DNA of 64,000 nt from an uncultured Candidatus Saccharibacteria bacterium (GCA_964545165.1 CAZJEQ010000003.1:52990-116989); one strand, 5' to 3'; positions 5,471 to 58,693 are shown, counted from the first letter of the stretch. Made by a program: numbers and translations. Notes: generated by a model from the sequence alone, not told the origin.

Positions 5471-5522
5471 TCAAGAATCCTACATCAAAAGCGGCGTCTC
5501 CGCGATTTCTTGTTCATGGCAG

Positions 5523-5558
5523 CTATAAAAAGGAAGACCCCGCTTTCGCGGGGTCTTC
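5523..5558 (-). terminator. Strong rho-independent terminator (11-bp stem gaagaccccgc/gcggggtcttc, loop tttc, then CTTTTTATAG on the minus strand)
   Basis: Seen directly. It lies 6 nt after the stop of the tiny ORF and ~50 nt upstream of the secA start. Confidence 0.6.
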
Positions 5559-5564
5559 TACTCA

Positions 5565-5624
5565 CTAGACGCGCTTCTTAGCCTTCTTGGCCTTCTTCTT
5601 CGTCGTCTTCTTTTTCTTTGCCAT
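5565..5624 (-). CDS. Candidate 19-aa lysine-rich peptide MAKKKKTTKKKAKKAKKRV
   Basis: ATG 5624..5622, TAG at 5567..5565. It is immediately followed by the 11-bp-stem terminator. A ~250-bp AT-rich island (5631-5880), unusual in this 60% GC window, lies upstream. It may be a real small basic protein or a chance ORF inside a non-coding transcript. Confidence 0.25.
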   Translation of the reverse strand: MAKKKKTTKKKAKKAKKRV

Positions 5625-5930
5625 ACGATGTAAATGAAATTTGTTTTACTAAACTCGACCCGCTTCGCGCGAAACGCATCAGCGTTTTATAAATTATTGC
5701 ACCGCGCGCGTAACATGATGCGCATTCGTGATAATTATGGGGATAACTTTTCATTTAAAAAAATAATGTGAAAAGAATGAAATTTTGCACGCATGAATGT
5801 ATATTCACGTCATGTACACCCCTTCATGCTTGATGCGTTGCACTGTATCGACAGAATGCTACCCTTCTTATAGGAGAATAAAGGGCGTAGCGTGGAGGGC
5901 GGCGGCACTCACATAAGACTTTCACTTTTT

Positions 5931-6119
5931 GGAGCTCGCACCCGCCTTCCACAGTACGCCTTTTTTATTTCAAAAAAGGCTGTGAAGGCGTGCGAGCTCC
6001 AAAAACGAAAGGGGTCGGGAAAACTGCAGTTTTCCCGTGTAGGAGAGTTTTGAGAACCGAGAGGTTCTCAAAGCGAAGCTTTTTGCGTGCTCGCACCCGC
6101 CTTCCACAGTGCGCCTTTT
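5931..6119. repeat. Block of nested hairpins and direct repeats
   Basis: A 70-nt extended hairpin at 5931-6000 contains an inner 9-bp stem gcctttttt/aaaaaaggc. There are perfect palindromes at 6017-6036 (gggaaaactgcagttttccc) and 6052-6069 (gagaaccgagaggttctc). A 31-nt direct repeat gctcgcacccgccttccacagtRcgcctttt occurs at 5934-5964 and 6089-6119. Positions are anchored to ORF 5990..6292. Confidence 0.5.
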
Positions 6120-6243
6120 CTCTTTGGAGCGACGATAAACGAAAAGTGCCTACCTTGCGGTTGGCACTGATCGGACTTTCTTTTGGAAGCGCCGTTAAGC
6201 ACTCACGTACGAATTCTACTGCTTGGGATGATTTGCGCAACGA

Positions 6244-37693: not shown

Positions 37694-38911
37694 TTACCTC
37701 ACGTGATGTATCAAAAGCGCCTCAAATACGCGCTCTTTCATTGCCTTAGCGATCACACTCCAATCGTACTTCTCAGCGACGAGCTTTTTTGCACTGTCGA
37801 CAACGTGCTTGACCAAGACTGGGTTCTGCATGTAGCGCTCCACAGCGCGCGCGATAGATGCGGGATCTTGCACCGCACAAAAGACGCCTGTCTCACCATC
37901 GGTGAGAAAATCTGGGATGCCACCGACGGGTGTTGCGACAACGGGAATCCCTGCGGCAAATGCTTCTACGAATGAATTGCCGAATCCCTCGATGATGGAG
38001 GGGCGCACAAAGATGTCTGATATCTGGTAGAGCGCGGGGAGCGTCTCATGCCCGATGTGTCCTGCCCATATGACGCGGTCGCTGACACCCGATTCCTCGG
38101 CGATGCGCTCAAGCGCTGCGTGATCCTCCCCGCTCCCCGCGACGAGGAGCTTCACATTGGCAGGCAGATGTGGGAGTGCGCGGATGATGTCTTCCACGCC
38201 TCGCGACAAGACGAGTCGCGAGGCAGTGAAGAGAAAGACATCACCCATGTGTTTATTGAAACGGACCTTCAGCTCCATCGCCCGCTCTTCCGAGATTCGC
38301 TCGGAAAACTTCGCGACGTCCACGGCATTTGGAATCACTTCGATGCGCTTGGTATAGCCGAGCATACGCATCTCTTTGGCAATGAAATTCGAAATCGCTT
38401 TTACGAGATCGGCCTTTAGGTAGATCTGTTTGTAAAGGGGCCAGATGAGCGCGAGGAGTGGGCGACGAGTAGCCATCTCCACGAGCGCTCGCCCATCCTG
38501 CAATTCGAGATAATACGGTGTCTTGGGATGCGTCCACTTGAAGAAGAGCGCGGCGAATGCCGCCTGATTGGCCATCAGCGCCCAGGTCATGTCGTATCGC
38601 TGCTCGGCATGCAGACGCAGTGCTGTGAAAAATGCCGTGAAGGGAAATAGCGCCTTGGCCATTTTGAGCGCGAAGGGGAGTGCGCGATCGGAGACTTTTG
38701 CATTCGCGACGGTAAAACCGATGCGATGCACCGTGATATTCCCTACCCGCTCGACTCGCGGCAAGGCGCTATCGAAGCGCAGTGTAATCATGTCGAACTG
38801 GTACTCATTCGGATCGAGTCGATCGGTGATCTCTTTCATCGCCACCTCTGCCCCACCAACATATGGGAAATACGTGAGGGAAAATATGAGAATCCGTTTC
38901 ATTGCTGTCAT
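37694..38911 (-). CDS. GT4 glycosyltransferase
   Basis: LTYFPYVGGAEVAMKEI...EGFGNSFVEAFAAGIPVV. Confidence 0.8.
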   Translation of the reverse strand: MTAMKRILIFSLTYFPYVGGAEVAMKEITDRLDPNEYQFDMITLRFDSALPRVERVGNITVHRIGFTVANAKVSDRALPFALKMAKALFPFTAFFTALRLHAEQRYDMTWALMANQAAFAALFFKWTHPKTPYYLELQDGRALVEMATRRPLLALIWPLYKQIYLKADLVKAISNFIAKEMRMLGYTKRIEVIPNAVDVAKFSERISEERAMELKVRFNKHMGDVFLFTASRLVLSRGVEDIIRALPHLPANVKLLVAGSGEDHAALERIAEESGVSDRVIWAGHIGHETLPALYQISDIFVRPSIIEGFGNSFVEAFAAGIPVVATPVGGIPDFLTDGETGVFCAVQDPASIARAVERYMQNPVLVKHVVDSAKKLVAEKYDWSVIAKAMKERVFEALLIHHVR

Positions 38912-38982
38912 CCTAGCGGGTATTCATAAAAACCGAAAGCGCGTCACGACCAAATGTCGTGACGCGTAGAGATCAGGGAATT

Positions 38983-39447
38983 TCACTTGGGCGCGGTCGC
39001 AATGAGCCCTGCTCCTGCGACCACTAGGATGATGCCCGCAAATGCTCGCCAACTCCAGGCTGCGGCGTCGAAGTACTGCGGCGCGCACCACGCGAGCACG
39101 ATCGCCGCGACGAAGGTCAGGGGGCTCGCGATGTTGGAGACCGCGACCGCAAGACCAGAATTCGGTGCGATCATCACCGCGTGGAAGAGCATGTTATTGG
39201 CGAGTCCACCAAAGACCAGCCCGACGCAGAGAATTCCCGCGACGATCTGCCATGAGGGGAAAAACTCCACCCGAGGCGTTGCGAGGCACAGTCCGAAGAG
39301 CGTGACAGAAACGGCGCTCCCCACGAAGTACCAGACCACGAAGACACTGCTCGGGACGCCGAAATTCTTACTGAAAAACGGCATGGCGAGCCACGCCGGC
39401 GCGAGCAAGAGGGCCGCGAGAGCAGATTGGGTAAGCCAGGTGGGCAT
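38983..39447 (-). CDS. Small 4-TM EamA/SMR-like transporter, possibly a polyprenyl-phospho-sugar flippase subunit (ArnE/ArnF-like)
   Basis: 154 aa, four predicted TM helices. It lies next to ArnT/ArnC-like genes. Confidence 0.45.
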   Translation of the reverse strand: MPTWLTQSALAALLLAPAWLAMPFFSKNFGVPSSVFVVWYFVGSAVSVTLFGLCLATPRVEFFPSWQIVAGILCVGLVFGGLANNMLFHAVMIAPNSGLAVAVSNIASPLTFVAAIVLAWCAPQYFDAAAWSWRAFAGIILVVAGAGLIATAPK

Positions 39448-39518
39448 GAAGCCTCCTCAAATTTTGACGGCCCTGATTAGAGCACTATTTCAATAAGGTG
39501 TCGAGTCAAGCGAGAACC

Positions 39519-40288: not shown

Positions 40289-41155
40289 CTATTTTTGGGC
40301 TTTGAGTGACTCAATATAGTCCTTGATGGAGTGTTCTGCTTTCCAGCCAAATTCTTTTTCGGCCTTCGTGGTATCACAGAGAGACTCCATGCGATTGCCC
40401 GGGCGCTCAGGCAGCATCACGATATTGTCGGTAAACATCTTGGCGACTTCCAAGACCGCAAATGATTCGTGCGAGCCGAGACCATACTCATCCCCCTGCC
40501 CTTTTTCGCCGACGAGCACGAGGCCGCGCGCGAGATCATCGACATGCGTAAAATTGCGCTTCTGCGTGCCTGGTGCGCGCACCGTGATCGGCTGATTATT
40601 TTTGTAGAGCGTCTTGAAAATACCGATCGCGGTCGCATACGGTCCTTCTGTCTCCTCGCGCGGCCCATACGCGTTGTAGAAATACGTGATCGCAAACGGG
40701 AGGTTGTACCAATGACCAAAATTGCGGACCAATTCTGTATTCGATGCCTTCATCCACGCATACGGCGATTGATCACGGCCCATGCCACCATCGGCGAATT
40801 TGGTCGATGATCCGGCGTACACGATCTTGCAGCCACGCTTTTTCCAATACTTGAGTACCTGGAAGGTGCCCTGCACATTGGACTCCCACACGGTGTCGAG
40901 ATCATTGAAGCTCTGCTCCACGCGTGAGTATTCACCGAGGTGGAAGATGATTGCGGGATTGAGATGCCCCGCGAGCTGTTCGATGTCCTTGGTGTGACCC
41001 TCGATGTACTCCGCTCCCGCGACGTGATTTTCTTTCTTGCCGATGAAGTAGTTGTCGAGCGATACGACGTGGTAATTCGGGAGGAGCAATTCGATAAGCC
41101 GCGAGCCGATCATGCCCGCGCCACCCGTGACCAGCACCGTCTGTTTCTCTGTCAT
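40289..41155 (-). CDS. NAD-dependent epimerase/dehydratase (extended SDR)
   Basis: VLVTGGAGMIGSRLIELLL... plus the YxxxK region. Confidence 0.8.
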   Translation of the reverse strand: MTEKQTVLVTGGAGMIGSRLIELLLPNYHVVSLDNYFIGKKENHVAGAEYIEGHTKDIEQLAGHLNPAIIFHLGEYSRVEQSFNDLDTVWESNVQGTFQVLKYWKKRGCKIVYAGSSTKFADGGMGRDQSPYAWMKASNTELVRNFGHWYNLPFAITYFYNAYGPREETEGPYATAIGIFKTLYKNNQPITVRAPGTQKRNFTHVDDLARGLVLVGEKGQGDEYGLGSHESFAVLEVAKMFTDNIVMLPERPGNRMESLCDTTKAEKEFGWKAEHSIKDYIESLKAQK

Positions 41156-41173: not shown

Positions 41174-42517
41174 TTAACGGCTTTCATCAATTATGTTCCA
41201 CTCACCTTTCTTGGCATGTTTGATGGCATACACGGCACCGCATGCGGCGAGCGACAGCGCGAATGCCGCCAGCCACCAGAGATAGCTGCCAGTATCCACA
41301 CTGCCCGCAGCAGCAAGCGAAGATGACGCCACGATGGATGTTGTTGTCGCAACTTCCTGCGGCCGTGCCTCCTCATCTACTCGAGACACCGTACTCGGCA
41401 CAAACGTGCGAGTGACCGCCGGTGGAGCAACGGTCACCGCGACTGACGGTGCGGGAGCAAATGCAGCAGGGGCAGCGCTCAGGAGTTCGGCGCGCATGCC
41501 GTTGGGGTACTGCAGTTCCGTCTGCGGTCCCACGGTAAAGCCGAGCGTGCTGTTGGGAATGCGGAGTGTTTCGCCTTCGAGAATAACGGTTCCGTCGGGG
41601 AAGACGAATGACCTCCCGAACGAGCGCACGAGCCACCGGGAAATATCGATGTCTCTCCCCGCTTCATTTCCTATCGAGATTGATCCATCTGCGTTCACGC
41701 TGAAGTGCAGCTCCGCTGGCTCAGCAGTGACGAGAATGCGGTCCGATGCCGCCGAGATATGTTGCGCAATCGTAAGGACGACTACGTACGTGCCGGGGTA
41801 TGAAAAGTTATGGAGAACGCTACTGCCATCCGCGACCGTGCCATCGCCAAAATTCCAATTGAAACGCACATTGTCGACAATCTCTTGATCGCGATTGTAT
41901 GCCCGTCCGCGAAATTCTGTGTCGGCTCCCACGATGACCATACAATTCTCACCACCATCGGCAAAGACGGCTGCGACGGGTGGTGCCACATACGAAGACA
42001 CGATCGTACTATTCGATGATTGCGAAGATGCGGTTGTCGAGGTGCTGGTTTGCGAATTCGTATTCTGATTGCTCGATGAGCCGCTCCCGATGGTGATGAG
42101 TTGCGTCGCGGTCCACGTCGCGCCTGCTGGATCCCAGCCCGTGCAGGTCGAGCCCGGGCGAAGCGCGGCTTTGACGGTGAGCGTAACGGTGCCCGAAGAG
42201 GCATCGCGGTAGTAGAAATTGCGGCGGAATTGGCTTGTCGAGAGCGTGAGCGAGAGTGCCGAAGTAGGTGTCGCTGGCCACGAGCTCTCGTTGGTCGAAA
42301 ATTCTCCCGAAGCAGACGAGGAGGTGACCTGCATACACACGCTATTACCGTTGACCGCGACGCCAGCAGCATCCTGCGCTTCGATCGTGATCTGCGCCGA
42401 TACCGTCGATGGTGCGACACTCTGCACGTCAGTCGTGAATGCGATGTGATCAATTGCCGCAGCTCCCACGAAAGACGGGAGCAGGAGTGCGACGAGGACA
42501 AGAGAGATCCTCCTCAT
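41174..42517 (-). CDS. Cell-surface protein: signal peptide, beta-rich domains, Ser/Thr-rich linker, PKD domain, C-terminal TM anchor
   Basis: MRRISLVLVALLLPSFVGAAA signal. PKD motif WNFGDGT...HNFSYPGTYVVVLT. C-terminal YLWWLAAFALSLAACGAVYAI plus a KHAKK tail. The tracked TTG extension to 42646 is rejected. Confidence 0.65.
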   Translation of the reverse strand: MRRISLVLVALLLPSFVGAAAIDHIAFTTDVQSVAPSTVSAQITIEAQDAAGVAVNGNSVCMQVTSSSASGEFSTNESSWPATPTSALSLTLSTSQFRRNFYYRDASSGTVTLTVKAALRPGSTCTGWDPAGATWTATQLITIGSGSSSNQNTNSQTSTSTTASSQSSNSTIVSSYVAPPVAAVFADGGENCMVIVGADTEFRGRAYNRDQEIVDNVRFNWNFGDGTVADGSSVLHNFSYPGTYVVVLTIAQHISAASDRILVTAEPAELHFSVNADGSISIGNEAGRDIDISRWLVRSFGRSFVFPDGTVILEGETLRIPNSTLGFTVGPQTELQYPNGMRAELLSAAPAAFAPAPSVAVTVAPPAVTRTFVPSTVSRVDEEARPQEVATTTSIVASSSLAAAGSVDTGSYLWWLAAFALSLAACGAVYAIKHAKKGEWNIIDESR

Positions 42518-42591: not shown

Positions 42592-42635
42592 CCCTGCAGA
42601 TATAAATACGCGGTCGCGTATTTATATCTGCAGGG
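42592..42635. repeat. Perfect 20-bp-stem palindrome ccctgcagatataaatacgc-ggtc-gcgtatttatatctgcaggg
   Basis: It lies between the stop of the TraD-like ATPase gene and the start of the PKD gene. No T-tract follows on either strand. CTGCAG occurs in both arms. Confidence 0.5.
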
Positions 42636-42687
42636 CAACACAGCAAAAGAACACAAGATCGATTTGAATACCAGGCAGCGCGGCCGC

Positions 42688-44607
42688 TTAATCGTTTTTC
42701 TGCAATATCTCTTTGAGCGTGCCGTGCGAGATTTCGCCATGGTGGCGATCGCGCTCAGGTGTTTCGGGGCGCGGTGGGCGGGGCTGCTCTTGACGCTCCT
42801 CGCGTGCCTGCTGCTGCGGTGGTGTATGCGGCTCAGATCGGGGCACAAAGGCATCACGCGCAGCCTGTTGCTCACGCGGTGCACGGTGCATCTGCTGCAC
42901 GGTCTGCGGTCGCGGCTGCTCGCGCTTCTGTTCCCGCTTCTCACGGAGCACATCGATAGGTGAGCGTGTCGGCATCGCGATAGGTGCAGCGGTGCTCTTT
43001 GCAATACCTTCTGCGCGCGCCTTCTCGATCGCGTCACGCAGCGAATTGCGCTCTACTTTCTCGCGCTCTGCACGTACTACGGGCGCCGGAGCGTGGGCCG
43101 TATCGCGTGGCGCAAATACGGCGCGCGATTGTGAGAGTGGTGGCGATTGGGTCACGGCGACCGCTCGCGCAAGGACCGCACGCGGCTCGGTCCCCTCGTC
43201 GCGGGGCCGCGTGCCATAGGCACTCCCTTTTCGCTCCTTCTTTTCCTTTGGGGGCGCAATAAATTCCAGCTGCTTATTGTTGGTCACTGCTTCAACATCC
43301 ACACGGACACGCCCGTATTGCGCGCGTGAATTCGTAACCACATCGTCACGGTACGTAATCGCCGGCGCCTCGATGGGCGGAATGGTCTCGGCAGAAAACG
43401 GCGCCGTACCCACCCCGTCGATCATGAGCGTGAGGTAGATCTGCCCGATGCCGAGGCCGACCAAATCTTCTGGGAGGAAGGTGGGCTTAAAGACCGTCTC
43501 GAGTACTTCGGCGTCAAACGGGCCCACGCGGAACACGATGAGTGTGCCGACGTTGCCGAACACGGCATCGCGCACCTCCTCTTCCATCTGTTCGATGTAC
43601 TGGTTGGCGAGTGTGAGTGCGAGTTTGTATTTGCGTGATTCTGAGAGAATGTCGGCGAAGGCCTCGTTCATCATCGACTGGAATTCGTCGACATAGAAAT
43701 AAAAGCGCGGCAGGCGCGCGAGGCGCGCTGCTGGCTCATCGGCGCGCGACATCGCAGCGAGATAGATCTTGACCGTGAGCATGGATCCCAAGAGTGCGGC
43801 GTTACTCTCACCCATGCGCCCCTTGGAGAGGTTGACGATAAAGATCTTTTTCTCGTCCATGATTTTGCGCAAATCAAACGAGGAGTGCGGCTGCCCGATA
43901 ATGTTGCGGATCAGCGGATTCGCGGTGAATTGACCAATCTTGTTTTGAATAGCCGGCGTCGCTTCGCGGGTATACGTATCGGTAAAATTCGCGAATTCGT
44001 CCGTCCAGAATGCTTTTACGATCGGGTCCGAGATCTTCTCAATCACGGCATTGCGAAAGGTCTTGTTGGTGAGCATGCGATTCACATCGAGGAGCGTTGA
44101 GTCCGGATACTCGAGCAGCGCGAGCAAGGTATTTTGCAGGATGTATTCCATACGTGCTGACCACGCGTCCACCCAGATACGCTTGAGCGCCCCCATGAGG
44201 CCAGAGACGACGAGGTGGCGCTTGTCGAAGCCGACATCTTCCATGACGTTGAAGCCGAGCGGGAAATCCGTATCAAACGGCGCAAAGTACACGACGTCTT
44301 TCACGCGGTGCTCAGGGATGAAATCGAGCAGCTTCTCAGCGGTCGAGCCGTGCGGATCGATAAAGGCTATGCCCTCGCCATTTTGGATATCTTGAATCGC
44401 CATGTTCTCGAGCATGGTCGATTTACCCATACCGGTTTTACCGATGACATAGACGTGCTTACCGCGATCTACTGCACGAATACCAAACATCTCGCGCTTT
44501 CCGCGCGTATGGGTCGTCGCAAAGTAGGTAATGCGACGCTCATCGTCGTGCTGATCCGGATGTACTTTCGGACCTGTATCGGGTGCATCATGATGGTCCC
44601 CAGACAT
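42688..44607 (-). CDS. Soluble FtsK/HerA-superfamily P-loop ATPase of the TraD/TraG/VirD4 (TrwB_AAD_bind) type, copy 1
   Basis: Walker A VIGKTGMGKST. Walker B YFYVDEFQ followed by ...LALTLANQ. No N-terminal TM helices. A long Arg/Glu/Gln/Pro-rich disordered C-terminal tail. Confidence 0.65.
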   Translation of the reverse strand: MSGDHHDAPDTGPKVHPDQHDDERRITYFATTHTRGKREMFGIRAVDRGKHVYVIGKTGMGKSTMLENMAIQDIQNGEGIAFIDPHGSTAEKLLDFIPEHRVKDVVYFAPFDTDFPLGFNVMEDVGFDKRHLVVSGLMGALKRIWVDAWSARMEYILQNTLLALLEYPDSTLLDVNRMLTNKTFRNAVIEKISDPIVKAFWTDEFANFTDTYTREATPAIQNKIGQFTANPLIRNIIGQPHSSFDLRKIMDEKKIFIVNLSKGRMGESNAALLGSMLTVKIYLAAMSRADEPAARLARLPRFYFYVDEFQSMMNEAFADILSESRKYKLALTLANQYIEQMEEEVRDAVFGNVGTLIVFRVGPFDAEVLETVFKPTFLPEDLVGLGIGQIYLTLMIDGVGTAPFSAETIPPIEAPAITYRDDVVTNSRAQYGRVRVDVEAVTNNKQLEFIAPPKEKKERKGSAYGTRPRDEGTEPRAVLARAVAVTQSPPLSQSRAVFAPRDTAHAPAPVVRAEREKVERNSLRDAIEKARAEGIAKSTAAPIAMPTRSPIDVLREKREQKREQPRPQTVQQMHRAPREQQAARDAFVPRSEPHTPPQQQAREERQEQPRPPRPETPERDRHHGEISHGTLKEILQKND

Positions 44608-44621
44608 GCGAGAAGTATAAC

Positions 44622-44733
44622 CTTGAAATTCTCAGCTGAGAATTTCAAGAGTTACACCCGGTCACACCTCTGCAGAGGTGTGACGTTGGGTGTCACCTTG
44701 GTCTTATCAGAGAATTTCAAGAGTTACACCCGG
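44622..44733. repeat. REP-like composite element
   Basis: Hairpin A cttgaaattctc-agct-gagaatttcaag at 44622-44649. Hairpin B gtcacacctctgcagaggtgtgac at 44661-44684. A partial second copy gagaatttcaagagttacacccgg at 44710-44733. Confidence 0.5.
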
Positions 44734-44765
44734 GCACGTCAAGTGGGAATGCGAACAAGCAACAA

Positions 44766-46334
44766 TTATTCCGTTGGCAGCGATGCTGCGGGCGCGTATT
44801 GATTGCGTACAAAGGTGATCAGTTTGGCGACATCCCCCGATGAATCTCGCGAACCGAGCACCACGACCGCCAGCAAGCGATTTTGTGCACCGATTTTCAC
44901 GTCGTACACGCCGGCGTAGGTCTCCCCTGCGTCGTTGGTCTGTCCGATTTTGCCGCCGACAAAGGTACCGGGAACATTTTTGAGCACATTGAAATTCGCG
45001 ATTGATCCAAACACAGGAGTCCCATACGCAGAATCTTTGAGATCGCCCGAGGTTATCGAAAAGACGAAGCGCCGATTCTCGTGAATATATTTGAGGAGCG
45101 TAAAGAGATCTTCCGGTGTCGAGAGATCATTCTTGGCTCCCGAGGGATCGCTAAAGAGCGTGTGCGTGAGTCCGATCGCACGCGCCTTGTCGTTCATCAG
45201 CGACACGAAGCGCTCCCTGCCGATTGAACGCGCCAGTGTCTCAGCTGCCTCATTAGAGCTCTCTTGCAAGAGGAGGAACAATAAATCGTACGCACGGTAG
45301 TGCATCCCCGCTTTTAAGCGCGGGACAGAAGTATACACAATCGCCTCGCGGGGCACGGTCACTTCTTTATCAAGATTAATGTACTCCGTCGCGACCAGCG
45401 CAGTCACGAGCTTGGTAATCGAGGCAATCGGTGCGGTAGACGAGGCGGCGCTGTTCATCAAGACGGTGTGATTGGTGAGATCGGCGACGATATACCCACT
45501 CGCACTCACTGCCGGCCCCTTGAGCTGGTACGCGAAGGGGTCACGCGTCGGTGCCTCGTTGTACACCACGACCGGCATACCGACCGTGGCGAGCGCGTAG
45601 ACTTTTTTCGCATCCTCAGTCGAGAGGCGGATGCAGCCGCCGGAGTATGTCGACGAGACTGCTGTGCCATCGGCATAGTACGGCCAGCCGTGAATGAAAA
45701 AATTCCCTTGAAAATCCATGCTGTACGGCATGTACACATCGCCAAACGACGAAAGATGATTTTCTTCCTTGGTCTGAATCTTATAGATGCCCGCCGGCGT
45801 CTCCCACCACGAGCCCACCTTACCCTTGGCACCAATCGGTACTTCGAGTGCCGGTGCGCCATCGATATATACGGTGAGCCGCATTGCAGAGAGATTCGCA
45901 TCGACAAACGACGCCTTGGCACTGACGAGCGATTCGATGGTCTCACCGTAGTACCCCGGATCAGAGAGTGCCGGCAACGCACCGTATTCGAGCGGGAGTG
46001 TCGTTGACGCGGTCTGCGGCACTGATATCGAATACACCGCCCGAGGATTTGCATACAGATACGAGGCGGCGGCCGTCGCGAGACAAGCACAAGCAATCGC
46101 GGCGTAGGTCAAAAGCGCGCGATTGCTTCGCGGCGCCTTGTCTGACGCCGGTGGCTTAGGGGGCACCACCACGGCCGGCGCGGGTGCTGCGACGGGTGGC
46201 AGCGGTGTCGTGGCCTCTCGCAGCTCATCAGCTGTCCACCCTTCAAGCGCCAGGCGCTCCGAGATCACGCCGTCCGCCATGCCAAGTGCGCGATACTGCG
46301 CGATGCGCACAGCGAGATCTTCGACGCGTGTCAT
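44766..46334 (-). CDS. Bifunctional-looking cell-wall enzyme: N-terminal L,D-transpeptidase (YkuD) + C-terminal D-Ala-D-Ala carboxypeptidase (S11/PBP5-like), N-terminal TM anchor
   Basis: YkuD catalytic motif HGWPYY...SGGCIRL. SxxK (SITKLV) and SxN (SSN) motifs with a KTG-like GGKIGQT. Confidence 0.65.
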   Translation of the reverse strand: MTRVEDLAVRIAQYRALGMADGVISERLALEGWTADELREATTPLPPVAAPAPAVVVPPKPPASDKAPRSNRALLTYAAIACACLATAAASYLYANPRAVYSISVPQTASTTLPLEYGALPALSDPGYYGETIESLVSAKASFVDANLSAMRLTVYIDGAPALEVPIGAKGKVGSWWETPAGIYKIQTKEENHLSSFGDVYMPYSMDFQGNFFIHGWPYYADGTAVSSTYSGGCIRLSTEDAKKVYALATVGMPVVVYNEAPTRDPFAYQLKGPAVSASGYIVADLTNHTVLMNSAASSTAPIASITKLVTALVATEYINLDKEVTVPREAIVYTSVPRLKAGMHYRAYDLLFLLLQESSNEAAETLARSIGRERFVSLMNDKARAIGLTHTLFSDPSGAKNDLSTPEDLFTLLKYIHENRRFVFSITSGDLKDSAYGTPVFGSIANFNVLKNVPGTFVGGKIGQTNDAGETYAGVYDVKIGAQNRLLAVVVLGSRDSSGDVAKLITFVRNQYAPAASLPTE

Positions 46335-46426
46335 GCCCCGATTTTATCATCCATCTCGAGGAATCTGGATAAAATCGATGAGGTGCAGCGTTCATGAACG
46401 CCTGAGTGGAGTGGTACCTGTAATGT

Positions 46427-47560
46427 CTATTGGTACTGAATGTAGAGGGGCTGTGGCGATAGCTTCAACAGTTCACTCGGCTGGAACATACCGGTCGACG
46501 GAGCGAAGAGATCGTTCTTATAGAAGAGCTTAAACCCGGTGAACTGCACAGGCTCTGGCACGATGACACGGGTATAAGTGCCGATCTTTTTGGCTTTGTC
46601 GCCCCAGCCGTCCATGTCCATCACAATCTGTACTTCCGGGAGCGGCTTAATGAGTCTGGTGTTGGTCACCATGTCCTGTGTAAAGCGGTGCACGATGAGA
46701 ATTTTTGGCGGGAGGTTATTCTCGCGCACCAATCGCGCCAGATATTCTGCAGCAAAATTAATATCCGCCGCATCAAACGAGCCAATCACACGCCCTGGCG
46801 GCGCTCCTGTTTTCATCGAGAACTCCGGATCCACACCAAGATGGACCTTCGGATTCTTGAGGTACTCCTCGTAGTGCGGCAATTCTTTCTGCAGTGTCGA
46901 GAGTCCCACCTGGAAATCGATAAACACGATGCCGTCGATCTTCTCTGCAATCGCGAGTGCTTTATCGATCTGGTCATCCGGCATGCGCAGCGTATACATG
47001 CCGTCTTTTTGCGGGAGGCTCTGCGCGGTTGTCACGATGTAATGAATAGCGGGGATGACCGGTGTCTTGGGATCCGCCGCTTCCCACTTCGCAACTTCCG
47101 CGCGCAATTTCTCGAGCATGACCGGCTCATCGTATTCGCCGAGCACGCCCATGCCACGCGAATAGAAATTGCCGTAGTACGCGACGATGCGATTAAACGG
47201 TAGGAGCGCACCTACGTTCGGATATGGTGCATTTTTGACCGGCCATTTGATCGCCGCTTTTTGCGCAGCAGAAGCGGTGGTCGATGCGAGGAGCGCGAGC
47301 GTCGTCGAGCTGAGATTGGCATTGGCGAGCAGCTTGGCGTCGTAGGCTTCACGATCAAGCTCAGGCGCACGCGGCTTGAGCGGTGTCGTAAATTGCCCCG
47401 TCGACGATGCACTGGCTCCCGTGCGATCAAAATTGACCGCATTGCCAAACATCAACGGTCCGAAAAAAACATAGATGAGAGATATCGCGAGCAGCGCCAC
47501 GCCGACATAGATGCCGAAGCGTGCTCCGCGATGCATCTCACGCTTTGATGCACGTGCCAT
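46427..47560 (-). CDS. Membrane-anchored hypothetical protein (possible glycoside-hydrolase-like TIM-barrel, DUF4015-like)
   Basis: N-terminal TM. Recognised from memory only. Start set at internal M29. Confidence 0.35.
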   Translation of the reverse strand: MARASKREMHRGARFGIYVGVALLAISLIYVFFGPLMFGNAVNFDRTGASASSTGQFTTPLKPRAPELDREAYDAKLLANANLSSTTLALLASTTASAAQKAAIKWPVKNAPYPNVGALLPFNRIVAYYGNFYSRGMGVLGEYDEPVMLEKLRAEVAKWEAADPKTPVIPAIHYIVTTAQSLPQKDGMYTLRMPDDQIDKALAIAEKIDGIVFIDFQVGLSTLQKELPHYEEYLKNPKVHLGVDPEFSMKTGAPPGRVIGSFDAADINFAAEYLARLVRENNLPPKILIVHRFTQDMVTNTRLIKPLPEVQIVMDMDGWGDKAKKIGTYTRVIVPEPVQFTGFKLFYKNDLFAPSTGMFQPSELLKLSPQPLYIQYQ

Positions 47561-47561
47561 G

Positions 47562-47759
47562 CTATTCGAGCGTGGTGTCTTCTTTGTGTGAGTGAGGTGC
47601 GCGCAAAATGCCAGCGCGACGACGTACCGCAATACCGAGGCCAATGACGATCACGCCGAGGATAAAGAAAATAACCGTGTCCCAACTGCTGGGGAAGCCG
47701 AGAAACGGAAGCAGTGCGACCAAGGCGCCTGCGAGCATGATGAGCGTATCGAGTGTCAT
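47562..47759 (-). CDS. Small 2-TM membrane protein (65 aa)
   Basis: Strongly hydrophobic. Its stop abuts the start of the downstream gene. Confidence 0.4.
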   Translation of the reverse strand: MTLDTLIMLAGALVALLPFLGFPSSWDTVIFFILGVIVIGLGIAVRRRAGILRAPHSHKEDTTLE

Positions 47760-47772
47760 GCCCGCAGTATAA

Positions 47773-47843
47773 CCTGAAGATTCTCACCAGAGAATCTTCA
47801 GGGTTATGCCCGGTCACGTCCCTGCAGGGACGTGACCGGGCAT
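47773..47843. repeat. REP-like composite element, second locus
   Basis: Hairpin A cctgaagattctc-acca-gagaatcttcagg at 47773-47802. Hairpin B atgcccggtcacgtccctgcagggacgtgaccgggcat at 47806-47843. Same architecture as at 44622-44684. Confidence 0.5.
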
Positions 47844-47849
47844 AGCAAA

Positions 47850-48542
47850 CTACTTTTCGACTATCACGACAAATTCGCCGCGCACGGCGCCGCGCTTCTT
47901 GAGCGATTTGGCGATTTCGAGTGGCTCGCCCGATACAAATTCTTCATGGAGCTTGGTGATTTCGCGCGCGATTGCAACTTTCTCGATACCGGCTTTGGCG
48001 AGCTCCTGCAGTAATTTCTCGATGCGGTGAGGGGATTCGAAGAGGACGACCGTGTATTCACTCGCGGCAATCTTCTTGATCGCGGTCTGTCTCCCCTTTT
48101 TGTGCGGCAAAAATCCGAGGAAGGTAAAGGCGTCACTTGCGAGTCCCGCGATCGAGAGTGCGGCGGTAACTGACGATGCTCCCGGCACCGCATCGATCAC
48201 GATCTCGGGCAGGTGCTCGCGCACATATGCGATGAGTCGCGCGCCCGGATCAGAGATACCCGGTGTGCCTGCGTCGGAGACGAGGACCACATGGTCACCC
48301 GCCTCGAGTCGCGCGCAGATTTCCTTCATTTTCTTGCTCTCGGTCGCCGCATCCATGCGCTGCACGGAGGTGCGGATACCGTAATGCGCGAGGAGCTTGG
48401 AGATGACACGCGTGTCTTCCGCATATATCACCGTCGCCTCCTTCAAATTCCAAAGGCCACGAAAGGTCATGTCACCCATGTTGCCGATGGGTGTGGCTAC
48501 GACGGAGAGTTTGCCCTGCGTTTCTTCTGAGTGCTCACTCAT
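47850..48542 (-). CDS. rsmI: 16S rRNA (cytidine1402-2'-O)-methyltransferase
   Basis: KLSVVATPIGNMGDMTFRGL...VSDAGTPGISDPG matches RsmI. Confidence 0.9.
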   Translation of the reverse strand: MSEHSEETQGKLSVVATPIGNMGDMTFRGLWNLKEATVIYAEDTRVISKLLAHYGIRTSVQRMDAATESKKMKEICARLEAGDHVVLVSDAGTPGISDPGARLIAYVREHLPEIVIDAVPGASSVTAALSIAGLASDAFTFLGFLPHKKGRQTAIKKIAASEYTVVLFESPHRIEKLLQELAKAGIEKVAIAREITKLHEEFVSGEPLEIAKSLKKRGAVRGEFVVIVEK

Positions 48543-49086: not shown

Positions 49087-49107
49087 CGCGATGCGCCCCG
49101 ATCATGG

Positions 49108-49140
49108 ACGGCCCGTTTTCACGGGCCGTTTTGTTTTAAT
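49108..49140 (+). terminator. Rho-independent terminator (stem acggcccg/cgggccgt, TTTTGTTTTAAT)
   Basis: Seen directly. An A-tract on the other side could make it bidirectional for convergent murC. Confidence 0.65.
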
Positions 49141-53214: not shown

Positions 53215-53400
53215 CGCGTTCGAACACTCGTAGGTGGAAAGTGAATCAGGGTGCAATTCCCTGGCTGTCGCGCAACCGTATAGTCGGAGCCTTTCCATTC
53301 CCCTCTTTCAAGGGCTACGTTCCGGCTCGCGCCAAGTCACCTTCCACAACTCCCCTTGTGGATCCTCATGACCCCGCGATCCGGGGTTTGTCGCGTATGT
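53215..53400 (+). ncRNA. Candidate cobalamin (AdoCbl) riboswitch
   Basis: The core 53234-53291, GGUGGAAAGUGAAUCAGGGUGCAAUUCCCUGGCUGUCGCGCAACCGUAUAGUCGGAGCC, aligns by eye to the recalled E. coli btuB segment AGGGAAUCCAGUGCGAAUCUGGAGCUGACGCGCAGCGGUAAGG and to the T. tengcongensis GGGUGAGAAUCCCGCGCAGCCCCCGCUACUGUGAGG. A 6-bp hairpin ACCCCG-CGAUC-CGGGGU plus UUGU follows at 53371-53390, just before the ATG. Not verified with a covariance model. Confidence 0.4.
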
Positions 53401-53401
53401 C

Positions 53402-55414
53402 ATGCAGGAAGTTGCAGAACAACCAATTGATTACGTATCCGAAAATAGTGTCGGCGATTTTGATTTTGAGCGCCCATTTGAAATTGCTAATGAAAACGAG
53501 ATGCAGCTGTCCGACGAGGAGGTCTCTCCCGAGCTACTCGCCGCGAACGACATCGATCCAGTGGGAGAAGCGATACGCCCGTATGTAGGTGAACAATCGG
53601 AGACGGTAACGAGAGCAGAAAATATAATGGAGATAAAAGATGGCGAACTAGTGGATAACAACAGCGGGCTATCTCTCACGCGAATGCTTGAAACATCTGG
53701 AAGCGATGCGGACAGGGCGCTGCACCAAGACATGATGCGGCAATGGCAAGAGGGCGGCAGCAATTTTTTTGTAAATCCGATATTGGAACCTGAATACTTT
53801 CCCGGCGGAGAGCGCTATTTCATTACAACGATGATCCTTGAAGCTGACGGCAAGAGTGTCAGTTATGAGACGCGCACTATTACTACTCTGTACAAGGACG
53901 AGGACGAGACGCCAGCGCGTGATAACGAATACGCGGAGTCCAGCTCTCAGCAATGGTCTGAACACACAGGGTCTCAGGAAATCGAGGCGAATTACCCGCA
54001 GAATGAACTCGCATATATGGAGCAGGCGGCAGCAGTTACGGTTGAAGAACCAGAGTCTGCCGATACCGAAGCAGCCATTACTACTACCGCACGAGAAAAC
54101 ACTCAATCTCAGCTTGAAGCAAACGTACCGACTACGATGGAGGTTCGTACAGAATCTGAAAAATCTATTGAATATTCGTACGCAGAAATTGCGCATCCAC
54201 GAGAAATACAGGCGCAGATATTAGGAGAATTCCTCGCCATGGAACAATTGCCTGCCATACCAGTAGAAGACGATTTTAATGAGCCAATTATCTTGAAGGC
54301 ACCTGAGCCAGCACAAGACATCCTGAACGAGGCACAGCGCGTTGAGCACTCAGAAACAAATCGGGCTCCTGTTGAAATCCCCACAAACAATGTTCCGAGA
54401 TTTGTAGAAACTCAAACCAGTGAAGTCATATTTGAACAAGCCGAAATTGTCCAAGAGCTCGCTGAGCAACCAGAAGTAACCGTACAGATTAAGACCGAGG
54501 TTCCTCGCACTAAACCTGCTGCTACCAGAGAAGTGCAGAGGATCGACGTACAGGACGCAGAGCTTCCGACATATGATTTTAAAGATGCGATTGATGAGAT
54601 CAGAGAAGTGACCTCAGTGGTTATAGAACAACAAGAGAAGCCCGTTGTGAAAGAGATTACGGAGCTTAAGCCAGAAGTAAAAACTGTCGAGCCACAAATT
54701 GTAGAAATCTTTAGAGGTCGCCGTGGTGCGCGACCAACGACTGAATCGGGATCATCAAGATCAAATCACGAGGAGCGGGCAGAGGAGCTGCGTACTGAGC
54801 CACAATCAATCGCCGAGCGAGCTGTCGAGCAGACACTTGAGCGATTCGCCGCTGAAATGATTCGCGCACGTCCCACGCAACAAGAAGATGCACACCGAGA
54901 GCCGTTCGTTGAGCTAAATGTACGTGCAGCTAATGAACATGATCTGGTCGTTGAAGCTGATGAGCAGGCACTGACCACACGTGAGCACGTACGAGTCGCA
55001 GAGAAAGTTGCGCCAATAATCCTTGAACAAAAGCCGACCATTTCATCAGAAACTCGTCTTCCCGATATTCCAGAAACACGTACTGATGAATCTCTACACA
55101 TCCCAGAGGAGCCTGCCGCTCAACCACATGTGACTGCTGAAGCCGCTCCTCAACGCACAGCGCATGAATCAGGCACTGTTGTTCCCTTCCCTGACCTCGC
55201 TCGCCCTGAGACAAGAGCAGCCTCTGGCATTGAACATATTCTTGAGCAGCTCCGCCTTCCCCGCTCCGCGAACACTCCTGAAGTGATCCGTGCTGCCAAC
55301 GAGAACCTCCGCACGAGCGCATCAAGTAATCTCGCTATGTCCGACGATGCCGACAATCAACCACGTACGCGCACCGTCAAATCTGGTCCGATCACGATGA
55401 GAATTGCCGCCTAA
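53402..55414 (+). CDS. 670-aa highly acidic (Glu/Gln/Asp/Thr/Ala-rich), low-complexity, probably disordered protein
   Basis: A long ORF on the plus strand. The Glu-rich composition is unlike the Arg/Ala/Pro-rich spurious ORFs in this window. No signal peptide, TM helix or recognisable domain. Confidence 0.5.
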   Translation: MQEVAEQPIDYVSENSVGDFDFERPFEIANENEMQLSDEEVSPELLAANDIDPVGEAIRPYVGEQSETVTRAENIMEIKDGELVDNNSGLSLTRMLETSGSDADRALHQDMMRQWQEGGSNFFVNPILEPEYFPGGERYFITTMILEADGKSVSYETRTITTLYKDEDETPARDNEYAESSSQQWSEHTGSQEIEANYPQNELAYMEQAAAVTVEEPESADTEAAITTTARENTQSQLEANVPTTMEVRTESEKSIEYSYAEIAHPREIQAQILGEFLAMEQLPAIPVEDDFNEPIILKAPEPAQDILNEAQRVEHSETNRAPVEIPTNNVPRFVETQTSEVIFEQAEIVQELAEQPEVTVQIKTEVPRTKPAATREVQRIDVQDAELPTYDFKDAIDEIREVTSVVIEQQEKPVVKEITELKPEVKTVEPQIVEIFRGRRGARPTTESGSSRSNHEERAEELRTEPQSIAERAVEQTLERFAAEMIRARPTQQEDAHREPFVELNVRAANEHDLVVEADEQALTTREHVRVAEKVAPIILEQKPTISSETRLPDIPETRTDESLHIPEEPAAQPHVTAEAAPQRTAHESGTVVPFPDLARPETRAASGIEHILEQLRLPRSANTPEVIRAANENLRTSASSNLAMSDDADNQPRTRTVKSGPITMRIAA

Positions 55415-57090: not shown

Positions 57091-57408
57091 ATGCACACAC
57101 GCGAAACACTTCCATCCCGCGAGCATTTCACCAACACTGCGGCGCCAGCGACGCAGGAAAAGGCACGTGTCTCACTCGCGCATGCCGACGAGATCCATGC
57201 GAGCCGCCGCACCATGCTCGAGGGTCTTGCCTCGAAAATCGGCTCACGCCTCTTCGAGGCCCTCTCGCGCAAAGTCGACCACGAACGCAGCGCCCTCGTC
57301 GAGATGATCGAGCGCGATGCGAAAGCCGCTGAGACCAAGCGCCGACTCGATAAGGTGCTCAAAACTGAATACTTTACGTACCGAAAACTTGATACCAATT
57401 TACTGTAA
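57091..57408 (+). CDS. Small alpha-helical hypothetical protein (105 aa)
   Basis: It starts 4 nt after the clp-like stop and ends 4 nt before the next start. Confidence 0.5.
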   Translation: MHTRETLPSREHFTNTAAPATQEKARVSLAHADEIHASRRTMLEGLASKIGSRLFEALSRKVDHERSALVEMIERDAKAAETKRRLDKVLKTEYFTYRKLDTNLL

Positions 57409-57412
57409 TCCT

Positions 57413-58693
57413 ATGCATACGGTCTCTATTGGCGAAAATGTGTACCACGGCAAGCGACGCCTGATTGAATACGCGGCAGATGATCGTCTGCGCCATATGT
57501 ACATGATTGGCAAAACGGGCGTCGGCAAATCGACGATTTTCCAAAATATGTGTCTGCAGGATATCGAGCGCGGCAGTGGTACCTGCTTTATTGATCCCCA
57601 TGGAGAATCGATTGAATGGCTCCTCGCGCGCATCCCCGCGGATCGCCTCCAAGACGTCGTCCTCTTCGACCCAAGTGACACCGACTACCCCTTTGGGCTC
57701 AACCTCCTCGAGGCGCGCGACGAATTCGAGAAGGATTTCCTCGTGAATGAATGCATCCAGATTTTCTACAAACTCTTCGATCCTAAGAAGAGCGGCATTA
57801 TCGGTCCCCAATTCGAGCACTGGCTGCGCAATGCCGCACTCACCGTGATGGCCGGGCCTGACGGCGGATCAATTCTCGAAATCCCGCGCCTCTTTGTCGA
57901 CAAAGAATTTGAGCGCACGAAACGCGCGCACCTCACGGATCCGCTCGTCCTCGATTTCTGGACCAAGCAGATGGCAAAAACGTCGGATTTCCACAAGAGC
58001 GAAATGCTCAACTACTTCATGTCGAAATTCGGCCCCTTCATCAACAACGCCATGATGCGCAATATCATGGGCCAGCATGTGAGCAGCTTCGACTTTAGTG
58101 CACTGATGAATGGGCGCGCCATCGTGCTCGCCAATCTCTCCAAAGGCAAGATCGGCGAAATGAATGCGCACATGCTCGGCCTCATCCTGATCTCGCGCTT
58201 GCAGGCGGCGGTGCTAGGGCGCGCCAAAGACCCGCCACAGAGCCGCACCCCCTTCTATCTGTACGTCGACGAGTTTCAAAACTTCTCGACCGACACGTTT
58301 ATCTCGCTCCTCTCTGAGTCACGTAAATACGGCCTCGGCATCCATCTGACCAATCAATACCTCTCACAGCTGCCGGAGAGCATCCGCGATTCGGTACTCG
58401 GCAACGTCGGCACGATGGTCTCATTCGAAGTCGGTGCTGAAGATGCACGTCTCTTGAGTGATGAATTCGCACCGATGTCAGAAGCAGATTTCATGGGACT
58501 CCCGCGCTTTAATTTCTTCGTAAAACTTATGATGGGTGGGAAAACCAGCGAAGTCTTCTCGGGCGTCGGGCTGCCGCCACAAGACATCGCCGCGACGAGC
58601 GCCTCGCGTGAGAGCGTGGTCGCATTGAATCGCCTCGCCTATGGCTGGCCGCGCACGCTCGTCGAAGAGACCGTGCATCACCAGCTTCGCTAA
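57413..58693 (+). CDS. Soluble TraD/TraG/VirD4-type (FtsK/HerA superfamily) ATPase, copy 2
   Basis: Walker A MIGKTGVGKST. Walker B FYLYVDEFQ followed by ...GIHLTNQ. Collinear paralogue of the 42688..44607 product. Start set at internal M33 of the tracked ORF. No TM. Confidence 0.65.
   Translation: MHTVSIGENVYHGKRRLIEYAADDRLRHMYMIGKTGVGKSTIFQNMCLQDIERGSGTCFIDPHGESIEWLLARIPADRLQDVVLFDPSDTDYPFGLNLLEARDEFEKDFLVNECIQIFYKLFDPKKSGIIGPQFEHWLRNAALTVMAGPDGGSILEIPRLFVDKEFERTKRAHLTDPLVLDFWTKQMAKTSDFHKSEMLNYFMSKFGPFINNAMMRNIMGQHVSSFDFSALMNGRAIVLANLSKGKIGEMNAHMLGLILISRLQAAVLGRAKDPPQSRTPFYLYVDEFQNFSTDTFISLLSESRKYGLGIHLTNQYLSQLPESIRDSVLGNVGTMVSFEVGAEDARLLSDEFAPMSEADFMGLPRFNFFVKLMMGGKTSEVFSGVGLPPQDIAATSASRESVVALNRLAYGWPRTLVEETVHHQLR

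Follow-up and report, generated by a model that had tools for sequence, protein, structure and literature searches.

A family of short repeat units, each built of two hairpins and ending in a predicted promoter box ahead of a start codon, is present in a 64,000-nt stretch of DNA (GCA_964545165.1 CAZJEQ010000003.1:52990-116989), called the window below, with positions counted from its first letter. The window has a G+C content of 55% and its source, judging by protein similarity, is a Candidatus Kaiserbacteria bacterium, belonging to the candidate phyla radiation (CPR)/Parcubacteria. Between 40 and 50 kb, every gene lies on the minus strand. In order of rising coordinates, these genes encode an epimerase (40289-41155), a PKD-domain protein (41174-42517), an ATPase resembling type IV secretion system (T4SS) coupling proteins (T4CP-like, 42688-44607), a YkuD/S11 peptidase fusion (44766-46334), a 377-aa protein (46427-47560), a 65-aa protein (47562-47759), and a TP_methylase (47850-48542). 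As the flanking genes all run in this direction, the palindromes of their spacers are to be read as hairpin 2, hairpin 1, and TATACT-N6-ATG, and the unit is always described here on the gene strand.

Two of these spacers, at 44614-44754 and 47766-47844, contain members of one repeat family. The initial annotation of the window had flagged three intergenic sites with related perfect palindromes, the third being 42592-42635. The palindromes are indeed present, at 44622-44649, 44661-44684, 47773-47802, 47805-47844, and 42592-42635 (21-bp arms); with a minimum arm length of 10 bp, only 15 perfect palindromes occur in the window, five of them within the three flagged spacers. Folded as single-stranded DNA, the flagged palindromes lie far below shuffled sequences (z = -12.2, -8.4, and -8.6). 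The two-hairpin architecture proposed for the sites at 44.6 and 47.8 kb was also correct, down to its consensus strings, and these sites are homologous: they form an 80-nt direct repeat of 75% identity, extending from the start codon through hairpin 2.

Unit B (47766-47844, minus strand), upstream of the 65-aa gene, is intact from its left TATGC to its terminal TATACT. It begins 5 nt past a stop codon, scores 86.5 bits with the family covariance model (R1), and its DNA fold reaches -37.2 kcal/mol (z = -12.2). Its hairpin 2 (47805-47844, minus strand) is a 40-nt perfect palindrome with a CTGCAG apex, the outer arms of which are the linker segments TATGCCC and GGGCATA, and its hairpin 1 (47773-47802, minus strand) has a 13-bp stem and a 4-nt loop, at about -16 to -45 relative to the ATG. 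The TATACT -10 hexamer at the right end (47766-47771, minus strand) is followed by N6 (47760-47765) and the ATG (47757-47759). Unit A (44614-44696, minus strand; 96.8 bits with R1; DNA fold of -24.9 kcal/mol, z = -8.4) is likewise intact and lies upstream of the T4CP-like ATPase gene. The inner stem of its hairpin 2 is a 24-nt perfect palindrome with a CTGCAG apex (44661-44684, minus strand), its hairpin 1 a 28-nt perfect palindrome (44622-44649, minus strand), and its right-end TATACT (44614-44619, minus strand) precedes N6 (44608-44613) and the ATG (44605-44607); a promoter scan returned TTCTCA-17-TATACT at this place. The segment 44622-44733, previously taken as one element, includes this single intact unit, the rest belonging to a decayed distal unit, A' (44697-44754, minus strand), which forms a head-to-tail tandem with A. 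In A', the middle linker is preserved, as is the left arm of hairpin 1, and both are shared with A. Decay has affected hairpin 2, the other (right) arm of hairpin 1, and the final TATAC, which now reads TGACAC; the hairpin-2 arm TCGCATTCC of A' matches the unit of a close relative (L001). The proposal that A' is older than A was dropped, as the identity comparison gave no order.

The anatomy of the unit emerges from a nearly gap-free alignment of 20 copies. Over about 80 nt, the unit reads TATAC-CCAACGTC-hairpin 2-GTCCGGGCATAACTCT-hairpin 1-(A/T)AGGTTATAC, followed by T, N6-8, and ATG. The three linkers have pairwise identities of 0.81, 0.91, and 0.93, although the middle and right ones were part of the search patterns and thus owe their conservation partly to ascertainment; identity is 0.51-0.60 in the hairpins and drops to 0.26-0.32 directly outside TATAC...TATACT. 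The left linker was in no search pattern, and the four copies found through synteny (A, B, and those of the close relatives L001 and L002) have all three linkers. Hairpin 2 has an 8-bp inner stem with a loop that is mostly TGCA or TGCG, and an outer stem, with a conserved AAC bulge and a T-T mismatch, in which TAYRCCC pairs with GGGYRTA. Hairpin 1 has a stem of 9-12 bp and a 4-nt loop, and is extended by TAAC/GTTA past a bulged pyrimidine. AAC(G/T) precedes both hairpins. The unit starts and finishes with TATAC, and in nearly all units CCAACG follows TATAC or a close variant of it. There are no terminal inverted repeats, the two ends, CCAACGTC... and ...AGGTTATAC, bearing no such relation to each other. 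The elements have no T-tracts, as had been observed before.

The hairpin stems vary between copies yet stay nearly pure Watson-Crick (349 Watson-Crick pairs vs. 7 G-U), and folding the copies reveals strong covariation. RNAalifold recovers both hairpins, with compensatory changes in 12 of 22 pairs. When the full structure is written by hand, 88.3% of the cells are paired, compared with 75.4 +/- 0.9 in shuffled alignments (none out of 500 reaching the observed value) and with 23-50% in a control with slid partners; double changes affect 19 of the 30 pairs, and hairpin 2 is 96% paired. The unpaired cells in columns 64-68 correspond to a one-column alignment offset in one subfamily, each copy folding individually. 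In a control free of phylogeny, each arm was matched either with its partner from the same copy, giving 7.5 of 8 and 8.5 of 9 paired positions, or with the partner arm of another copy, giving 4.4 and 4.5. The strand of folding was sought by counting G-U and A-C oppositions in the variable stems, which have about 6 of the former and about 8 of the latter. G-U is thus not in excess; there is no asymmetry between the strands and, therefore, no sign that one RNA strand is the selected molecule. From the sequences, the palindromes look like DNA-level features.

The key feature of the family, which the initial annotation missed, is that each unit ends in a -10 hexamer, TATACT, 6-8 nt before an ATG. 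The hexamer is made of the terminal TATAC plus the flanking T; this register, with its predicted promoter, occurs in 16 of the 19 arrays, and 14 of these 16 ATGs open an open reading frame (ORF) of at least 40 aa in the available sequence. The three exceptions are L018, L021a, and L025, the last being followed by a further degenerate unit. All units are intergenic. The neighbour upstream is mostly co-directional (at least 10 of 19 arrays, from crude ORF calls), apparently divergent in L004 and L019, and in L017 a canonical terminator lies directly upstream of the unit. Downstream, the genes are unrelated and encode a HIT protein, a pol III delta'-like protein, an exonuclease, a signal peptidase, GAPDH, a UvrD-like helicase, a VOC protein, glutamate dehydrogenase, the T4CP-like ATPase, and small membrane proteins. 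The element, therefore, tracks promoters, and not gene ends or a functional class; the downstream genes have unrelated housekeeping functions and do not constitute a regulon.

The position of the hexamer fits transcripts that would start at the ATG itself. By a crude count, 20 of 56 window genes lack a Shine-Dalgarno motif and show, 5-8 nt ahead of the ATG, a hexamer resembling a -10 box, so leaderless transcripts are inferred to be common in this genome. In the literature searched, no paper on leaderless transcription in these organisms was found. TATACT itself is rare as a -10 box: it was counted at 8 of 51 starts, and seven of those eight are at the two element loci (A and B).

About 24 family units are known in total, fuzzy matching having added neighbouring units. 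Outside the window, they occur in two close relatives (L001 and L002), one other metagenome-assembled genome (MAG), and soil metagenome contigs; the sites at 44.6 and 47.8 kb, therefore, are not peculiar to the window. The loci designated L001-L029 are the collected contigs of relatives and metagenomes, and those with ATPase orthologues are syntenic to the window. L001 carries a unit of identical spacing upstream of the ATPase gene, and L002 one upstream of the 65-aa gene. Among 185,579 species genomes, a pattern scan identified three true matches, all in the MAG CAYGFN01; nine further matches had no hairpin, and their number equals the chance expectation. A scan of JGI metagenomes gave 10 copies, seven of them on different contigs of one soil sample. 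The contig of L021 encodes orthologues of the 377-aa (74% identity) and 65-aa (65% identity) proteins of the window; therefore, the family belongs to related organisms, and it is restricted to Candidatus Kaiserbacteria-like CPR bacteria. On this soil contig (Ga0070690_100147465), the two orthologues stand in the reverse order relative to the window, with a repeat unit before each, and recombination between units may rearrange the local gene order. L020 and L022 have both stems in common, with unrelated flanks and unrelated downstream genes.

No known family accounts for these units. At the elements, Rfam gave no match, only generic microRNA-hairpin models appearing at E <= 1, far below threshold; as no Rfam family reaches its gathering threshold, identity with a known RNA family was rejected. 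A blastn search of phage and plasmid collections with unit B found nothing, nor did two motif scans of viral contigs, and a phage or plasmid origin was ruled out on these results. No description of the family was found in the literature searched, and it is apparently undescribed.

Orthologous spacers without a unit occur in L003, L026, L027/L028, and L029, to which the ATPase (T4CP) spacer of L002 can be added. These empty sites are short and read TATACT- or TATAAT-N6/7-ATG, and R1 finds no unit anywhere in the loci of the element-free relatives. In these relatives, the native -10 is TATACT at exactly the two loci that are filled in the window. Tandem units (A'/A, L004, L014a/b, L016, L018, and L019a/b) are all head-to-tail and in a single orientation. 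Their junctions always read ...AGGT(T/G)ATAC|CCAA..., with one TATAC common to both units. The internal junctions are thus TATACC, and only the last unit has a following T, which completes the -10 hexamer.

Unit B and its orthologue in L002 allow an estimate of constraint, which is based on this one orthologous pair. They are identical at 73 of 80 positions (91%), while four-fold degenerate sites in the flanking genes are 48-54% identical, i.e., near saturation between the window and L002; one of the differences is a compensated T-A to A-T flip in hairpin 2. This copy is, therefore, not drifting neutrally, and at least one copy is clearly under purifying selection in place. At site A, the proximal unit of the window is not the same as that of L001.

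Units A, A', and B are, on balance, probably copies of a lineage-specific, non-autonomous mobile repeat of the repetitive extragenic palindromic (REP) or MITE (miniature inverted-repeat transposable element) kind, which would occupy and rebuild the TATAC|T -10 box of leaderless promoters. A lineage-specific and undescribed REP/MITE-like family had already been suggested by the initial annotation. For the two sites of 44.6 and 47.8 kb, the suggestion holds, given the other copies, the presence/absence pattern, the covariation, and the lack of an Rfam match; it fails for 42592-42635 and 6017-6036. The family is, thus, narrower in membership than first proposed, and richer in structure and context. 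According to the proposed mechanism, the element would take up the TATAC|T -10 hexamer of promoters from which transcription begins at the ATG itself, and its right end, AGGTTATAC, together with the flanking T, would rebuild the -10 at the original distance from the start codon. Because the -10 would be rebuilt, insertion would be tolerated, the orientation would be constant, and recurrence behind an earlier unit would give head-to-tail arrays. The hairpins would be kept as DNA palindromes, probably as recognition structures for a trans-acting enzyme encoded elsewhere, and the nearest mechanistic analogy would be the hairpin-recognising single-strand transposition 3' of a short target found in the IS200/IS605 and REP/REP-associated tyrosine transposase (RAYT) systems. 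Since at least one copy is under purifying selection, the hairpins may serve the host, and the most plausible role would be that of a barrier keeping upstream transcription away from the leaderless promoter.

Several points weigh against a mobile repeat of this kind. A Pfam scan found no transposase, recombinase, or HUH/Y1 protein among the ORFs of the 64-kb window. The density is low: the 64 kb of the window have two sites (three units), whereas 74 kb from other relatives have no site; in the R1 scan, relatives carry 0-1 unit per 6-19 kb. Covariation links the left TAYRC to the GYRTA of the middle linker (pairs 18-56 and 19-55); the former, therefore, behaves as element sequence, not as an untouched target. 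The history of A' and A is ambiguous, the hairpin-2 arm of A' being like L001 and its linker and hairpin-1 left arm like A. The ascertainment affecting the middle and right linkers also counts here, and a host function would explain the strong conservation between unit B and its L002 orthologue no worse than a selfish element would. The promoter activity and the leaderless starts are predictions from sequence. The sequence is, moreover, compatible with insertion 3' of TATAC, with a 5-bp target duplication, or with in-place spread by recombination, and cannot tell these apart.

Candidates for the mobilising gene were considered and rejected. A 222-aa ORF lies beside units in both L001 and L014, and the two proteins are unrelated. 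An IS256-family gene (Transposase_mut) was observed in L027 (10371-11477) and L028 (6761-7831), downstream of the ATPase gene, at the place taken by the PKD gene in the window; it is unrelated to the units, and these loci have none. The arrangement GYRTAAC...GTTATAC with a bulged base also resembles the inverse-core/core layout of integron attC sites, a reading that was set aside, as no integrase is encoded in the window and the genes on both sides are core genes in synteny. A bolder version of the mobile-repeat reading would make the unit a minimal single-stranded DNA transposon remnant that homes on the -10 box, integrating into the TATAC|T of leaderless promoters through a Y1/HUH-type or other enzyme and restoring the promoter by means of its own end, and that the host retains as a DNA or RNA hairpin insulator. 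This version is speculative and rather unlikely; if it were true, mobile DNA would shape the punctuation between genes in compact CPR genomes.

A different account, which overlaps with the mobile repeat and is considered unlikely, sees the unit as a host cassette for punctuation, with hairpins that terminate or insulate upstream transcription and stabilise the mRNA 3' end, a right end that supplies the leaderless -10, and spread by recombination; host function, rather than mobility, would be the reason for its existence. A co-directional gene does lie upstream of most arrays (at least 10 of 19, from the crude ORF calls), unit B directly follows a stop codon, and the hairpins are very stable (-25 to -37 kcal/mol). 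Read-through transcripts would bury an AUG devoid of a Shine-Dalgarno motif, and the 91% identity of unit B and its L002 orthologue, against 48-54% at neutral sites and with a compensated pair flip, would be as expected from a host function. In their stable hairpins directly downstream of many co-directional genes, the units also resemble intrinsic terminators, and a terminator scan flags hairpin 1 of unit A with its TTATACTTCT tail. Nevertheless, this is the only hairpin to pass that scan, itself a loose one, and neither hairpin is followed by a U-tract: hairpin 2 continues with AACYCU and hairpin 1 with GGUUAUACU. The hairpin flanks are conserved, unlike those of intrinsic terminators, and units also stand beside genes that are apparently divergent (L004 and L019) or already terminated. 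The same genomes possess canonical terminators with a GC hairpin and a T-tract (window 5533-5558 and 49106-49131; L017, upstream of the unit), G-U pairs do not exceed A-C mismatches, contrary to selection at the RNA level, and relatives do without a unit at the same spacers.

The absence of an excess of G-U also bears on the possibility that the repeat is a multicopy structured RNA, either a small or 3'-UTR-derived RNA of about 75 nt with a seed GUCCGGGCAUAACUCU between its 5' and 3' hairpins, or a signal for RNA processing or stability. An invariant unpaired linker flanked by covarying stems is the classic pattern of an RNA gene, a TATAC(C) box stands 6-7 nt ahead of the hairpin 2 stem, and tandem multicopy genes for small RNAs are known in other bacteria. 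However, the left box is TATACC, without the critical final T, there is no terminator U-tract, G-U makes up only 2% of the pairs with A-C mismatches equally common, and Rfam gives no match even at E = 1. An RNA gene would, furthermore, leave unexplained the fixed register of 6-8 nt with the next ATG, and as the element lies upstream of the inferred transcription start, it would not be the 5' leader of the downstream gene. This reading is, therefore, considered quite improbable, and the attenuation or RNA-processing signal mentioned in the initial annotation is not favoured, on the same two grounds of position and G-U counts. Even less credit is given to an operator, with a dimeric transcription factor binding palindromes that overlap the -35 region and co-regulating the downstream genes. 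With its centre near -28, hairpin 1 overlaps the core promoter, and its ATTCTC-N4-GAGAAT core is fairly constant within one genome. Across copies, though, the stems are hypervariable and largely unrelated (cross-copy complementarity of 4.5/9) and the half-sites change together, which points to structure and not to sequence read-out; the downstream genes have no common functional theme, tandem arrays and decayed distal units would not be expected, and the orthologous promoters of relatives have no site. A sequence-specific protein-binding site, as had also been put forward, is thus disfavoured, and an operator would be a most surprising outcome.

Comparison with known systems places the repeat among small palindromic elements without assigning it to any of them. 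Like REP sequences and bacterial interspersed mosaic elements (BIMEs), the units are short extragenic palindromes with compensatory mutations and arrays with conserved linkers. REP elements have a conserved GT(A/G)G head 5' of the palindrome, and are presumed to be mobilised in trans by a Y1/HUH enzyme from another locus (PMC2817692). In the 20-unit alignment, by contrast, no GTAG or GTGG head exists, the heads being TATAC-CCAACGTC and GCATAACTCT. REP alternate in orientation, whereas the present units run head-to-tail in one direction, with two different hairpins per unit and a strict start-codon register. Their copy number is apparently low (two sites per 64 kb, as opposed to >100 REP per genome), and the 64-kb window has no RAYT, while the cognate rayt gene of REP is flanked by two inverted REPs. 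Resemblance to non-autonomous derivatives of IS200/IS605 lies in the asymmetric ends, with a different subterminal imperfect hairpin at each end and no terminal inverted repeats, in a TATAC that adjoins the left end and also terminates the right one, about 9 nt 3' of the foot of the hairpin, and in the constant orientation and seamless-looking empty sites; a 5-bp duplication would leave the same sort of sites, and self-targeting would explain the tandem arrays. IS608, for example, inserts 3' of TTAC, and its right cleavage site is 10 nt 3' of the hairpin (PMC3201880). However, the unit, at about 80 nt, is far smaller than these derivatives, no TnpA is encoded in the window, and the stems are hypervariable between copies; the left TATAC pairs with the middle linker, and only 8 nt separate it from the inner foot of the hairpin, compared with 19 nt in IS608. 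Membership in the IS200/IS605 or REP/RAYT family is, by this comparison, not established.

The nearest functional analogue would be the Correia element of Neisseria (Correia repeat enclosed element, CREE, or Neisseria miniature insertion sequence, NEMIS), another small non-coding mobile repeat mostly located 5' of genes and folding into hairpins. Its ends create promoter boxes together with the flank, it shows presence/absence among strains, and it has 26-bp terminal inverted repeats and a TA duplication (PMC2649163). CREE also have a site for integration host factor (IHF), a length of 104-157 bp, either orientation, and a variable distance to the gene, none of which applies here; the present unit lacks terminal inverted repeats, and its flanking direct repeat is TATAC and not TA. 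Reused or mobile promoters, described by Nijveen, Matus-Garcia, and van Passel, are closely similar promoter-bearing segments before unrelated genes of one genome and of related genomes (PMC3575422). They are defined by similarity alone, unlike the present family with its two-hairpin anatomy, covarying stems, arrays, and -10-box junction.

The combination of an ~80-nt unit, a pair of variable hairpins, linkers that are invariant, and an apparent specificity for a promoter box is unlike REP/BIME, Correia elements, and described IS200/IS605 derivatives. The genomes of CPR bacteria (Patescibacteria) are tiny and densely packed, and few repeats are believed to occur in them; to our knowledge, gene regulation in these organisms is almost unstudied. 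In this setting, a repeat family placed on the core promoters of housekeeping genes that are unrelated, maintaining its hairpins through compensatory changes and gained or lost even among close relatives, would offer a rare way into CPR promoter architecture, leaderless expression, and mobile DNA. The covariance model can be used to annotate units in MAGs and to flag likely transcription starts.

The palindrome at 42592-42635 and the one at 6017-6036, both previously placed in the family, are singletons that are not related to it: the covariance model finds neither 42592-42635 nor 6016-6072, and blastn gives no relatives for either. The former is a 44-nt perfect palindrome (no strand assigned), a singleton located 75 nt upstream of the PKD-gene start (42517), for which blastn detects no relative among the collected loci. 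It lies within a spacer of about 105 nt that is missing in relatives, where the stop codon is directly followed by AAATCCACA; in L029, a different hairpin takes its place. A 19-mer match to it in a viral sequence was dismissed as chance, there being no palindrome around the viral site. The region 6016-6072 (no strand assigned) is non-coding and has two adjacent palindromes, the CTGCAG-centred 6016-6037 and 6049-6072. It is part of a 774-nt non-coding stretch (5471-6243, minus strand) between an O-antigen-ligase/TPR gene and secA, which includes a 19-codon lysine-rich ORF, MAKKKKTTKKKAKKAKKRV (5565-5624), then a canonical terminator (5533-5558), and also a 31-nt direct repeat (5934-5964 and 6089-6119, 97% identical) with an inverted partial copy. 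This stretch has no Rfam match and no relatives among the collected loci.

CTGCAG, which had been proposed as the defining centre of the family, forms the apex of hairpin 2 in only about eight of 20 units. It is the commonest apex, the others being CTGCGG or unrelated loops. In the window, the hexamer is mildly enriched, with 32 sites against 19.9 +/- 4.7 expected (three of 100 shuffles reach 32), and four of the five zero-loop perfect palindromes are centred on it, two of these four being family members. A CTGCAG-centred 20-nt perfect palindrome, GCGTGAGCTGCAGCTCACGC, lies at 1923-1942, inside the gatB coding region. With a variable apex, a mild enrichment, and the rejection of 42592-42635 and 6016-6072 by the covariance model, CTGCAG was discarded as a unifying signal. 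A role as a PstI-type restriction site has no support, the window encoding no restriction-modification genes.

Other palindromes of the lineage are distinct from the family. A different long hairpin insertion, GGTACCTGTGGTGTTTTGCCGTC ... GACGGCAAAACACCACAGGTACC, is found upstream of the YkuD/S11 gene in L001 (412-544) and L003 (5443-5626), of which the window retains only a right-hand remnant, ACAGGTACCACTCCACTCAG, at 46335-46426; it looks like a second, unrelated family of palindromic insertions. Another non-member is the perfect hairpin at 38940-38966, with an 11-bp stem (CGCGTCACGAC CAAAT GTCGTGACGCG), in the divergent spacer between a glycosyltransferase gene (37694-38911, minus strand) and a gene for a 169-aa protein (38987-39496, plus strand).

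Two further observations concern the genes of the window. A second protein, of 458 aa and weakly TrwB/T4CP-like, is encoded at 57317-58693 (plus strand), about 13 kb from the main T4CP-like gene; PF10412 matches it with E = 4.5e-5, the single domain stretches all being below the cut-off. An AdoCbl-II (cobalamin) riboswitch aptamer is matched by Rfam at 53234-53298 on the plus strand (39.6 bits, for a threshold of 36.5), about 100 nt upstream of a plus-strand gene for a 670-aa protein of unknown family (53402-55414), and overlaps the annotated 5' end of a minus-strand glucose-6-phosphate dehydrogenase (G6PD) ORF.

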